In this document: positions 32,387 through 38,326 of the stretch, piece by piece
How positions within the stretch are numbered: position 1 is the first letter of the stretch
Layout: the number at the start of each line of letters is the position of its first letter
Source of the DNA: Bdellovibrionales bacterium
GTDB taxonomy: Bacteria; Bdellovibrionota; Bdellovibrionia; Bdellovibrionales; UBA1609
DNA length: 64,000 nucleotides
Direction: 5' to 3'
NCBI GenBank assembly: GCA_965237565.1
Contig: OZ250145.1
Coordinates: 62,023-126,022, forward strand
Position numbers and translations under genes: made by a program
The notes under the pieces: model-generated
Database searches by the model: none
What the model saw: the letters and a program-made list of their open reading frames with translations, nothing else
What the model was told of the DNA's origin: nothing

Positions 32387-33700
32387 TCAATATTGAACAC
32401 GACGACTCTTTACTCGTACACCTTTCATCAAGCCTTCATATCGAGCAGTCAAGAGATGGGACTGGATTTGTTGCGTGGTATCCAAGGCGACACCAACCAA
32501 AATCAAAAGACTGGTCCCTCCAAAATAAAAAGAGATACCCATTTCATTAATCAACAAGGTAGGAATGATACAAACGATGCTTAGATAGATAGAGCCAGCA
32601 ACTGTTAAACGATCCAAAATTCGTTTTACATAATCGGCCGTACTTTTGCCAGCACGAATACCCGGAACAAAACCACCATATTTTTTCAAATTATCAGATA
32701 CCTCGGTGGGATTAAAAACTGCCTCCGTATAAAAGAAGCAAAAGAAAACAATCAAAACGATAAATAAGATATTAAACAAAGAACCTTGAGGAGTCAGAAT
32801 GTTCCCCAGATTTTGCGCCCAAGGTTGATCCACGTACTGAGCCAAAGAGGCGGGGAAAAACAATAAGCTGGAAGCGAAAATAGGGGGGATGACACCTGCA
32901 AAATTCACTTTCAAAGGTAGATGAGAACCTTGGGTAGCCGGCTGCTTGCTCATGGACCTTTGCGAATACTGAATGGGAATTCTTCTTTGGCCTACCTCTA
33001 TGAAAATAATAATCCCCACAACCAAGAGCATAAATAAAATCAAGGCCAGGAAAATTCCATTGCTAATCTGGCCCTGTCCAATCATTCTAAAGAGATTCAT
33101 TGTAGCTGAAGGGATTCCCGCTGCAATACCAGCAAAAATAATCAAAGAAGCACCATTCCCCACACCCCTGTCGTTGATCTGTTCTCCAAGCCACATAATG
33201 AAACAAGCTCCAGCTGTCAGAGTAATGATCGTAAAGACTTCGAAAGAGAGAAATCCAATCATCGGACTGATCACCAAAGGACGACCGTCTGATGCAGTTT
33301 GTGTCAAAAGCATTTTTGCAAATCCATAACCCTGAACAATAGAAAACAAGATAGTGGAATAACGAGTGTATTGATTGATTTTTCTACGACCTGCCTCTCC
33401 CTCTTTCTTTAGTTGTTCCAGATAAGGAATACCTGTTTGAAGCAACTGGAAAACGATGGAAGCAGTAATATATGGCATGATCCCCAAGGCAAAAATACTA
33501 AATCTTTCTAAGGCGCCTCCCGTAAAAGTGTTGAGCATATTTAAAATGCCACCACCTTGGTTGGCAAAAAAAGCGAGTAGAGCTTCACGATCCACTCCGG
33601 GCGTTGGGACCTGCACGCCCACACGGTAAATAACTAGCACGGCTAAAGTGAAAAAGATTTTTTGCCTGAGTTCTTTCGGAAAAGACAAATTTTGCATCAT
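32387..33700 (-). CDS. secY: Preprotein translocase SecY
   Basis: FSIFALGIMPYITASI, WLGEQI, GNGASL, VIPPIFASS, PGIRAG, FGGTSLLI. Confidence 0.99.
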   Translation of the reverse strand: MMQNLSFPKELRQKIFFTLAVLVIYRVGVQVPTPGVDREALLAFFANQGGGILNMLNTFTGGALERFSIFALGIMPYITASIVFQLLQTGIPYLEQLKKEGEAGRRKINQYTRYSTILFSIVQGYGFAKMLLTQTASDGRPLVISPMIGFLSFEVFTIITLTAGACFIMWLGEQINDRGVGNGASLIIFAGIAAGIPSATMNLFRMIGQGQISNGIFLALILFMLLVVGIIIFIEVGQRRIPIQYSQRSMSKQPATQGSHLPLKVNFAGVIPPIFASSLLFFPASLAQYVDQPWAQNLGNILTPQGSLFNILFIVLIVFFCFFYTEAVFNPTEVSDNLKKYGGFVPGIRAGKSTADYVKRILDRLTVAGSIYLSIVCIIPTLLINEMGISFYFGGTSLLILVGVALDTTQQIQSHLLTARYEGLMKGVRVKSRRVQY

Positions 33701-35883: not shown

Positions 35884-36273
35884 TCAATACACACGGCACA
35901 AAACTTCGCCACCCACATTGGATTGCTTAGCGAATTTTCCGCTCAAAATACCTTTGTTCGTACTCAATACCAAAAGACCATAACCAGAAAGTACTTCTGG
36001 GATTTGGCTAGATCTTAGATATTGACGACAGGAAGATTTACTGACTCGGTCAATTTTCTGGATGGCTGGACGGCCTTGTTCATTATATTTTAAATAAATT
36101 CTCATAATGCCTTGCTTGCCATCGTCCACGATTTTGTAATTTTTAATATAGCCATGAAGTTTTAATTGTTCTGCAATTCCTTCCTGCATTTTGGAACTGG
36201 GGATGTCCACCTTTTTGTGCTTTGCCAAAACAGCGTTTCTAATTCGAGTGCAAAATTGACTAATTGTATCCAT
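35884..36273 (-). CDS. rpsH: 30S ribosomal protein S8
   Basis: TRIRNA, GYIKNY, LSTNKG, GGEVLCRVY. Confidence 0.97.
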   Translation of the reverse strand: MDTISQFCTRIRNAVLAKHKKVDIPSSKMQEGIAEQLKLHGYIKNYKIVDDGKQGIMRIYLKYNEQGRPAIQKIDRVSKSSCRQYLRSSQIPEVLSGYGLLVLSTNKGILSGKFAKQSNVGGEVLCRVY

Positions 36274-36293
36274 TTTTTAAAAAACTCTCTCCA

Positions 36294-36836
36294 TTAATTC
36301 TTTTTAAAAGGCATGCCCAAGGACTCTAACAAAACACGGGCCTGTTGATCCGTATTCGCAGTTGTGCAAATTGTGATATTCATCCCGCGAATCACATCCA
36401 CCTTATCATAATCCACCTCTGGAAAAATGATTTGCTCCTTAATACCCATACTGTAATTTCCATGACCATCAAAGCTTTTTGGCGACAAGCCCCTAAAATC
36501 TCTAACTTGTGGAAGAGAAAAGTGAATCAGTCGCTCCAAAAAAGTCCACATTCTTTCGGATCGTAATGTCACACAGACTCCAAGGGGAACTCCCTTTCTG
36601 AGCTTAAAATTAGCTATCGCTTTTTTGGCCTTTGTGATCACCGCTTTTTGACCAGCAATCAGAGAAAGATCTCTAGCAACATTGGTAAGAATTTTTGGTG
36701 TTTTTACCGCTTGTGGAATACACATATTCAAAACAATTTTTTGAACGGTCGGGACCTGCATCAAATTGCTAAAGGCCAATTTTTTTTTCAATTCAAATTT
36801 TATTTTTTTTGCATATTGCACTTGGATCAAGCTCAT
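36294..36836 (-). CDS. rplE: 50S ribosomal protein L5
   Basis: KIVLNM, GQKAVITKAKK, FKLRKG, RDFRG, FDGHGNY. Confidence 0.98.
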   Translation of the reverse strand: MSLIQVQYAKKIKFELKKKLAFSNLMQVPTVQKIVLNMCIPQAVKTPKILTNVARDLSLIAGQKAVITKAKKAIANFKLRKGVPLGVCVTLRSERMWTFLERLIHFSLPQVRDFRGLSPKSFDGHGNYSMGIKEQIIFPEVDYDKVDVIRGMNITICTTANTDQQARVLLESLGMPFKKN

Positions 36837-37204
36837 TACAAAACCTCCTGAGCCATTGAGATAATTTTAATGAAACTCTTGGCTCTCAGTTCCCTAGCGA
36901 CAGGACCGAAAATACGAGTCCCAACAGGCTCTTTGTTGTTATTAATAAGAACTGCAGAATTTTCATCAAAACGAATGGAAGTACCGTCCGAACGTTGAAT
37001 CTTTTGGACAGTTCTTACGATCACTGCACGTGACATATCTCCTTTTTTCACCTTTGAGTTGGGCAAAGCATTCTTCACCGAAACCACAATAATATCTCCA
37101 ATACCAGCTGTACGTCTACGGGATCCTCCAAGCACCTTTATACACTGAACGATGCGGGCTCCAGAATTGTCAGCTACTTTCAAACGAGATTGCATCTGAA
37201 TCAT
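36836..37204 (-). CDS. rplN: 50S ribosomal protein L14
   Basis: [29 protein letters not shown]. Confidence 0.99.
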
Positions 37205-37476: not shown

Positions 37477-37914
37477 CTATGAATCTTCCTTTTTTATCTT
37501 GAGAAAATCAAACCACCCTTTTTTCTTTTTGGGCTGAGAAGATTTGTCCTCTGTTGCTTTTTTTTTCTCTATTGTTTCTTTACGTTTTTTCAATTTCAAT
37601 TTTTCAGCCTGCAAGATTTGCACTTGTTTTTCTTTTTTGACTTGTGCTTGTTTTTTAAATGAAAGTTTTTGCATTTTCTGTTTTGGCAACTCCGAAGAAG
37701 GAGTCTCCTTTGGTTTTTTGATCACAATTTTTGGCAAACCAGATAAAGCGGTTTGTATCCTAGAGATATCATGCTTGAAATTTCTCAGTTCCATCACATT
37801 GGAAAGTCTTTGCATTTTGTGTTTGATTTTTGCATTGAACAAATTTTGCCTCATTTGCACCAAACGTTTTCTCAGCTCTTGCTCTTGCAAATTTTTTATT
37901 TCTTCATATTTCAT
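37477..37914 (-). CDS. rpmC: 50S ribosomal protein L29 with ~85 aa basic C-terminal extension
   Basis: Located between rplP and rpsQ; first ~60 aa are L29-like (EL...L..LFN.K....L.N...LR..K.DISRIQT). Confidence 0.9.
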   Translation of the reverse strand: MKYEEIKNLQEQELRKRLVQMRQNLFNAKIKHKMQRLSNVMELRNFKHDISRIQTALSGLPKIVIKKPKETPSSELPKQKMQKLSFKKQAQVKKEKQVQILQAEKLKLKKRKETIEKKKATEDKSSQPKKKKGWFDFLKIKKEDS

Positions 37915-37918
37915 TGGA

Positions 37919-38326
37919 TCATATCCTAGCTAAAAACCTAGTTTTAAATGGCAGTTTATGAGAAGCCAAACGGAAAGCTTCACGAGCTTGCTCCGAAGTG
38001 ACCCCCTCAATTTCAAACAAAATTCGACCCGGTTTTATCATGGCCACCCAAAATTCCATGTTTCCTTTTCCAGAACCCATCCGCACTCCTATTGGTTTTT
38101 TTGAGATCGGCTTATCGGGAAAGATTCGTATCCATACCTTCCCTCCTCGTTTGATGGAACGAGAAATAGCGATACGACTGGCTTCAATTTGACGATCTGT
38201 CATTCGACCTGCCGACAAACTGACCAAGCCAAAATCACCAAAAGAAAGTTCTGTACCTCTTTTGGCTTGTCCTCGCAATCTCCCTCGATGGATTTTTCTC
38301 CATTTCATTTTCTTAGGACTTAACAC
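37919..38326 (-). CDS. rplP: 50S ribosomal protein L16
   Basis: [32 protein letters not shown]. Confidence 0.98.

Follow-up and report, generated by a model that had tools for sequence, protein, structure and literature searches.

The rpmC gene of a Bdellovibrionales bacterium raises the question of why the ribosomal protein uL29 should carry a long Lys-rich extension that ends in a short cluster of basic and aromatic residues, and whether this tail might hold the ribosome at the inner membrane, as an initial annotation of the locus had proposed. We analyzed the gene within a window of 64,000 nucleotides, by which we mean the whole stretch of DNA under study (GenBank assembly GCA_965237565.1, contig OZ250145.1, positions 62,023 to 126,022), within the genome to which the window belongs (G000; a single contig of 1,331,856 bases with 38% G+C, 94% complete by marker genes), and in related genomes. 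All genomes used are metagenome-assembled, and the analysis was carried out in silico.

The product of the gene matches Ribosomal_L29 (Pfam PF00831) over residues 4-57, with 46.9 bits against a cut-off of 24.5, and rpmC lies in its expected place between rplP (uL16) and rpsQ (uS17) of the S10/spc cluster, in an order shared by the relatives (Table 1). The cluster as a whole reads L3-L4-L23-L2-S19-L22-S3-L16-L29-S17-L14-L5-S8-L6-L18-S5-L30-L15-SecY. Pfam was run on the L29, L14, L5, S17, S5 and L3 products, and the remaining cluster genes were named by reading and by their matches in the operons of relatives. The interval 37477-37735, to which the initial annotation had drawn attention, corresponds to the stop codon and residues 61-145, i.e. 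the extension, and the C-terminus of the 145-aa protein reads ...SSQPKKKKGWFDFLKIKKEDS. The description of this uL29 as an elongated protein with a Lys-rich extension and a terminal motif was thus borne out by the ORF, by Pfam and by conservation throughout the genus, and its organization into core, linker and terminal motif is confirmed. Elsewhere in the cluster, rpsN (uS14) is missing from its usual place between uL5 and uS8.

Table 1. Position in the window of the extended uL29, its parts, and other genes of the ribosomal protein cluster and its surroundings
Feature	Position	Strand	Basis
rpmC (extended uL29), 145 aa	37477..37914	-	ORF and PF00831 match; stop codon 37477-37479
uL29 core, residues 1-60	37735..37914	-	Pfam match, confident model, conserved
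Lys-rich linker (about 68 aa), poorly conserved, residues 61-128	37531..37734	-	Composition, low pLDDT, identity 0.23
Terminal basic-aromatic motif KKKKGWFDFLKIKK, residues 129-142; proposed membrane-binding element	37489..37530	-	ORF translation
rplP (uL16), upstream neighbor	37919..38326	-	67-78% identity to the ORF at the same position in relatives' operons; own reading
rpsQ (uS17), abuts the uL29 stop codon	37201..37476	-	Pfam PF00366
rplN (uL14), followed directly by uL5, no rplX between	36836..37204	-	ORF and Pfam
rplE (uL5)	36294..36836	-	ORF and Pfam
Gap of about 20 bases between uL5 and uS8	36273-36294		
secY-like ORF, 437 aa (translocon facing the exit face)	32387..33700	-	67-72% identity, same operon position in relatives; named by reading
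RpoA-like ORF, 523 aa	28886-30457	+	
bL17, 175 aa	30490-31017	+	
uS5, 191 aa	34372-34947	-	
uL3, 267 aa	41419-42222	-	

Lys and Arg make up 34% of the tail after residue 60, and Asp and Glu 13%. AlphaFold2, run with an alignment of 17 sequences, modeled the core (residues 1-60) as three helices with block-mean pLDDT values of 86-97, while the tail was of low confidence (pLDDT mostly below 60), including a predicted helix at residues 90-118 and a short helix at residues 134-140 over WFDFLKI with a pLDDT of about 56-59. The terminal segment is too short to span a membrane and is rich in Lys/Arg and in large hydrophobic and aromatic residues. It had been likened to amphipathic membrane-targeting helices, and the signs of such a helix are mixed: a short one is modeled in G000 at low confidence, but the helical hydrophobic moment of the G000 motif (0.56, compared with 0.49-0.79 in orthologues) is unremarkable and the commonest variant of the motif, the Gly-rich WFGFFGS, is not predicted to be helical: in an orthologue with two such motifs, the model contained no helix anywhere in the tail. 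We also considered the hydrophobic moment as a discriminator and found that it is not useful alone, as 95 of 1243 ORFs, the FtsA terminus among them, passed the same generic filter for C-terminal amphipathic segments. "Basic-aromatic cluster" is, therefore, a safer label than "amphipathic helix", and we use it below.

A strict pattern built on the uL29 motif matched only 2 of the 3510 ORFs of the genome. One is uL29 itself. The other is a 343-aa ORF without a Pfam match (G000:C1:187475-188506, plus strand), in which KKRWFGFF stands where the first hydrophobic segment, apparently membrane-spanning, begins on its cytoplasmic side, and we count this second match in favor of a membrane role for the motif. 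As a side observation, a 103-aa ORF (G000:C1:250758-251069, minus strand), also without a Pfam match, ends in KKSKGNSFMNLFRKKKKAG, another candidate terminal membrane-binding motif.

The initial annotation had named a lack of conservation of the terminal motif among relatives as grounds for abandoning the membrane proposal. A search over 41 genomes recovered uL29 from 39. Within the genus of the window's organism (g1), it was recovered from G000 and from 13 of the 14 other genomes, the exception being G007, an assembly of 270 contigs that gave no uL29 match. All 14 proteins are extended (145-240 aa), and all 14 carry a homologous terminal basic-aromatic cluster; the same search in other genera (n=16) returned proteins of 62-73 aa, except for one of 97 aa. 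When the extended proteins were aligned (alignment A1), four zones could be distinguished after the core, namely the linker, a first motif, a Gly/Ser/Lys spacer and a second motif. Mean pairwise identity was 0.67 in the core, fell to 0.23 in the linker, rose to 0.51 in motif one, and was 0.30 in the spacer and 0.70 in motif two. Motif one is of the KKWFGF[FL]GS type, with variants that include KNWLGRLFGKKK, AKRFGRLFQWGKK, SRWVKRLVKK and RIWGWLRGRKK. Motif two, of the KRSFFRRKSG type, stands at the very end of 9 of the 14 uL29 proteins of the genus, and G000 uL29 has lost it altogether. The terminal motif is, thus, conserved behind a variable linker (0.51 and 0.70 versus 0.23), as the initial annotation had expected.

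This pattern bears on whether the extension has any function at all. Neutral low-complexity growth at the end of a gene would be in keeping with an AT-rich genome (38% G+C) in which Lys-rich tails are many, and with the large variation in tail length. However, 14 of 14 species of genus g1 have kept an open frame over about 80-180 codons, conservation of the terminal residues matches that of the core, and about 30 clusters at no more than 50% identity keep the architecture. A functionless extension is already disfavored by these observations, and we regard it as highly improbable.

The distribution of the tail was followed further by a profile search of 1.84 billion representative proteins, which gave 746 proteins at E<=0.001. 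Combining the listed matches of 85-399 aa with the uL29 proteins of at least 85 aa from the loci yielded 79 distinct long uL29 proteins. Of the 79, 39 have a basic-aromatic cluster at the terminus, every one of them from the close clade; the remaining 40 of the matches listed and the loci are fragments or have tails, Ala/Lys/Pro-rich or acidic, that are practically devoid of aromatics. The basic Ala/Lys/Pro-rich uL29 tails of other bacteria share with the extended uL29 the same core followed by a basic low-complexity extension, but they have no or almost no aromatics and no conserved terminal motif. Linkers were measured in 32 of the 39 proteins, the 7 that were dropped, including that of G000, having been missed by the core-anchor pattern. 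The measured linkers range from 61 to 147 aa, with a median of 87.5, and contain 31% Lys and Arg, 11% Asp and Glu, and only 45 aromatics in 2995 residues. Aromatic residues are instead concentrated in the last 10-43 residues of the measured tails, and the second motif is present in 21 of the 32 sequences (about two thirds).

Divergent members of the set carry clusters such as WLGRLFGKKK, RFGRLFQWGKK and SRWVKRLVKK (hydrophobic moment 0.61-0.79), and further variants read GFFSRIFRRKK, SFLSKFFRRKK and GWFSFVNRFKR. Lipid-binding peptides typically conserve a physico-chemical pattern rather than a sequence. Since the divergent members likewise keep the pattern and not the sequence, their variation counts for a lipid-binding reading of the cluster.

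The same alignment also offers an argument for a protein partner. The terminal motif might be a short linear docking peptide for, e.g., SecA, YidC, SecY, trigger factor or an unknown membrane protein, much as the C-terminal peptide of FtsZ is presented to FtsA on a flexible linker. The FtsZ of G000 has this layout, with a folded core, a linker and a conserved terminal peptide ending LLTELFKKF. Furthermore, residues W155, F178, R179 and K181, which are invariant in the 21 two-motif sequences, would suit a specific site, and identity in the second motif reaches 0.70. It would be unusual, however, for a specific protein-peptide interface to be reduced to composition and pattern, as it is in the divergent members, and G000 does without the second motif. 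We therefore consider a docking peptide quite unlikely.

Another explanation keeps the tail on the ribosome. It could be an extension that binds rRNA or neighboring ribosomal proteins near the exit, and that stabilizes or remodels the ribosome of a reduced, AT-rich genome with no role at the membrane. Basic plus aromatic residues are typical of RNA binders, so that the composition of the tail would also fit this function, and a strongly basic tail on a polyanionic ribosome could simply lie on rRNA. Basic low-complexity extensions are, moreover, widespread in the clade (at the N-terminus of L3 and the C-termini of S5 and L17), and the 40 long uL29 proteins mentioned above as lacking an aromatic cluster, most of them Ala/Lys/Pro-rich or acidic, are further examples of extension without such a motif. 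On the other hand, a linker of 0.23 identity and 61-147 aa that is modeled as disordered is ill suited to a fixed path on rRNA, conservation is confined to the extreme end, and the near-identical operons of sister genera without a tail make no general structural need apparent. We consider this explanation unlikely, though slightly less so than a docking peptide.

The window itself contains several extensions that may be noted separately. In the RpoA-like ORF, about 190 aa at the C-terminus form a low-complexity extension with a run of TPTQ repeats; the RpoA proteins of relatives in genera g37 and g3 (403-468 aa) have different extensions. bL17 has a very basic C-terminal tail, uS5 (191 aa here, 157-168 aa in g3 and 164-191 aa in g37) has a Lys/Glu-rich C-terminal tail, and uL3 has an N-terminal extension with ATESKQ-type repeats. 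The operons of g37 show similar but variable low-complexity extensions. No terminal aromatic motif was found on the extended bL17, uS5 or uL3 of the window.

The initial annotation had linked the tail to the absence of uL24, a neighboring exit protein, from the operon. The absence from the operon is real, because uL14 ends at position 36836 and uL5 starts there, but the protein itself has not been lost. An 87-aa KOW-type ORF resembling uL24 is encoded elsewhere in the genome (TIGR01079, E 2.4e-10, 41 bits, which is below the 53.7-bit cut-off); it lies at about G000:C1 798413-798676 on the plus strand, directly after an ORF read as bL28. Furthermore, all 30 of the 30 loci inspected across the order, those of SRP-containing relatives among them, show the same direct junction of uL14 with uL5, which indicates that the gap in the operon is ancestral and unrelated to the tail. 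Loss of uL24 was, therefore, rejected as a part of any system involving uL29. As a separate observation, the uL24 proteins of three g37 genomes end in short basic Leu-Phe stretches (KKKSLFSR, KKGLFNK and GRLFR). These are faintly reminiscent of the uL29 motif and occur on another exit-rim protein, and they are too short to interpret.

The signal recognition particle (SRP) is treated as an essential and near-universal factor for the co-translational insertion of membrane proteins. The initial annotation had pointed to ffh, ftsY, tig and rplX as the genes whose presence would matter here. The translocation genes tig, yidC and secA and the secY-like ORF are present in G000, rplX is present away from the operon as described above, and neither ffh nor ftsY was found. 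There was no match to ftsY in G000, the best match to ffh scored 15.5 bits, and the best match to the SRP54 GTPase domain scored 17 bits and consisted of short N-terminal stretches the size of a nucleotide-binding loop only. SRP RNA gave no hit in G000 at E<=10. Likewise, tblastn of G000 with the Ffh and FtsY proteins of two relatives gave no hit at E<=1e-3, while several neighboring genes were matched, and where the relative G022 has smc followed by ftsY, G000 has smc followed by a convergent gene.

These absences extend beyond one genome. Within the 41-genome set, Ffh exceeded the cut-off in 0 of 15 g1 genomes, in 0 of 1 from g3 and in 25 of 25 others, and the counts for SRP RNA were the same (0/15, 0/1 and 25/25); FtsY exceeded it in 0 of 15, 0 of 1 and 22 of 25, respectively. 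Among the 25 others, FtsY stayed under the cut-off in three: G020, which scored just below it and has the gene beside ffh, and the fragmented G024 and G035, which gave matches at the level of Ffh/FlhF only. Across the family, ffh was found in 78 of 109 genomes: it was not found in g1 (0/15), g37 (0/10) or g3 (0/4), versus 78 of 80 other family genomes, and the two remaining misses were one genome each in g41 and g42, which are 64% and 74% complete. Searches for the SRP54 domain and for SRP RNA likewise came up empty in 10 of 10 g37 genomes and 4 of 4 g3 genomes, whereas both were detected in 2 of 2 relatives that served as small-genome controls (1.2 and 1.6 Mb). Altogether, searches for ffh, ftsY, the SRP54-type GTPase domain (and so also flhF) and SRP RNA found none of them in any of the 29 genomes that make up g1, g37 and g3. 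These genomes measure 1.2-2.5 Mb, and 12 are single-contig assemblies (7 in g1, 3 in g37 and 2 in g3), so that missing contigs are an unlikely explanation. SRP is kept in relatives outside the three-genus clade, some of which have equally small genomes. The absence of SRP makes the extended uL29 more interesting than its sequence alone had suggested.

The order of events was assessed with a small FastTree phylogeny based on ribosomal proteins only (45 loci; 455 columns from uL14, uS17, the uL29 core and parts of uL5 and uL16). Genera g3, g37 and g1 formed one clade with a support of 0.992, within which g1 was monophyletic (0.974) and sister to g37 (0.928), and was thus nested in the SRP-less clade. 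The tail is restricted to g1. In g37, uL29 is 65-72 aa long in 9 of 10 genomes and 101 aa in the tenth, where the tail is Ala/Pro/Gly-rich and without an aromatic cluster, and in g3 it is 63-67 aa long in 4 of 4. The simplest history is a single loss of SRP on the common stem and, later, a single acquisition of the tail on the stem of g1. Because only one of the three SRP-less genera has the tail, it arose after the loss of SRP and was not required by it, and the co-occurrence of the two traits rests on a single evolutionary event. The idea that the tail goes with the absence of SRP is, therefore, weakened by two sister genera that lack SRP and yet have a short uL29.

Other places in which a comparable element might occur were inspected. 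In 20 of 20 genomes, drawn from g1, g37, g3 and the relatives with SRP, the YidC frames measured 509-584 aa and showed no long ribosome-binding C-terminal tail, and an Oxa1- or YidC2-like tail was set aside as a co-adaptation, the YidC of G000 ending shortly after its last hydrophobic segment. Three operons of g37 and g3 were read, and none of the other ribosomal proteins of their S10/spc/alpha clusters carried the motif. Searches for the tail as a separate or displaced piece, in the tail-less g3 or at other places in g1, gave no hit better than E 0.09-0.1.

We propose a model in which uL29 is a ribosome-borne membrane tether. In this model, rpmC would have acquired a disordered polybasic linker at its C-terminus (about 68 aa in G000, 61-147 aa in relatives), ending in a short aromatic and hydrophobic cluster among Lys and Arg residues, with a second cluster at the very end in most species. 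In the manner of the terminal targeting sequences of FtsA, MinD and FtsY, the cluster would partition into the interface of the anionic inner membrane and so keep the exit face of the 50S subunit dynamically in the vicinity of SecYEG and YidC. With no SRP, FtsY or SRP RNA, the ribosome itself would supply the step of membrane proximity that SRP and FtsY normally provide. Since the organism encodes mostly soluble proteins, any such tether must be weak or dynamic. We infer lipid binding, tethering and any link to the loss of SRP from the comparisons made here.

The position of uL29 on the ribosome speaks for the model. According to the available text of PMC4737761, the SRP NG domain and SecY loop 6/7 of E. 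coli both meet the ribosome mainly at uL29, and the extended uL29 is assumed by homology to occupy the same place at the tunnel exit. The terminal sequences of FtsY, FtsA and MinD are described, in the part of PMC6158289 available to us, as autonomous or transplantable membrane binders. Like the uL29 tail, the targeting sequences of these three proteins are short terminal segments, basic and hydrophobic or aromatic, that are set off by a flexible stretch, and the FtsA of G000, identified by Pfam, ends KIKRWMQELFP, which is comparable to the uL29 motif. They differ in that the uL29 motif is on a core ribosomal protein, is often duplicated, and in its commonest variant is Gly-rich and modeled as non-helical; its lipid binding is putative. 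The FtsY proteins of SRP-containing relatives have a segment just before the N domain, e.g. TFFGRIKSVF, GLWGRIKGVF or HFFGRVKKVF, that by reading fits [FLW][FW]G[RK][ILMV] in 8 of 11 cases and that we take, by inference, to be positionally equivalent to the E. coli helix. As an observation apart, FtsY in 10 of these 11 relatives opens, as judged by eye, with a hydrophobic stretch resembling a transmembrane segment, after which comes a variable linker, so that FtsY in these organisms appears to be membrane-anchored rather than only peripheral.

A functional parallel would be the mitochondrial ribosome. Where mitochondria have lost SRP, Mba1/mL45 and the tail of Oxa1 hold their ribosomes at the membrane, as stated in the accessible portion of PMC8321541. 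Common to both cases, as far as that portion describes the mitochondrial one, are the absence of SRP and a link between the exit region and the membrane through a ribosome-associated element, which in the case of uL29 is proposed. In contrast to mL45 and Mba1, a different protein is involved, and Pfam finds only the L29 domain in the extended uL29, which makes the likeness one of analogy and not of membership. It also departs from the mitochondrial Oxa1 tail, because YidC has no long tail in any of the 20 genomes and two SRP-less sister genera have no uL29 tail. Within bacteria, YqjD, ElaB and YgaM link the exit face of the 50S subunit (uL22, uL23, uL24 and uL29) to the membrane, and uL29, with other proteins of the exit rim, has been cross-linked to YqjD, a membrane protein (bioRxiv 10.1101/2024.08.16.608256, from the text available). 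As described there, these are separate C-tail-anchored proteins that inactivate stationary-phase ribosomes, whereas the extended uL29 would carry its element within the protein and has no transmembrane segment. Survival without SRP has been reported for laboratory E. coli given compensating changes (PMC8299109 and PMC10066597, in their available parts). Those cases are, as far as the available parts describe them, engineered depletions or suppressor mutants, unlike the natural, clade-wide loss in the Bdellovibrionales.

We place the probability that the tail acts as a membrane tether at the protein on which SRP and SecY dock, as a bacterial parallel to mitoribosome tethering, at roughly 0.45, i.e. 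somewhat short of even odds. The original proposal of uL29 as a membrane anchor is partly supported: conservation of the motif and the failure to find SRP components speak for it, while the retention of uL24, the uncertain helix and the tail-less, SRP-less sister genera go against parts of it. Counted against a tether are also the facts that g37 and g3 live without SRP and without the tail, which is thus not needed for such a life, that basic low-complexity extensions are common in the L3, S5, L17 and RpoA proteins of the clade, and that uL29 tails in other bacteria do without an aromatic motif. A broader version of the tether model, in which the clade discarded SRP and FtsY and one genus then moved membrane association onto uL29 by means of a lipid-binding motif like those of FtsY and FtsA, giving a self-targeting ribosome that evolved independently of mitochondria, is more tentative still; we regard it as possible, but doubtful.

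Neither SRP-less Bdellovibrionales nor a membrane-targeting tail on uL29 was found described in the full-text literature searched, a scope that did not take in subscription journals and supplements. An SRP-less clade among small-genome Bdellovibrionales, which is no tiny insect endosymbiont, is worth a study of its own, and the monophyletic set of 29 genomes offers a natural system for studying how membrane proteins are inserted without SRP. The SRP-less and tail-less genera g37 and g3 would serve as natural controls, in which some other compensation is to be sought. For insertion without SRP, the uL29 tail offers one concrete candidate answer that can be tested cheaply. To our knowledge, no bacterial ribosomal protein with a built-in membrane anchor is known so far; if the tail binds membranes, the extended uL29 would be the first, and it would represent an independent replay of the mitochondrial case.
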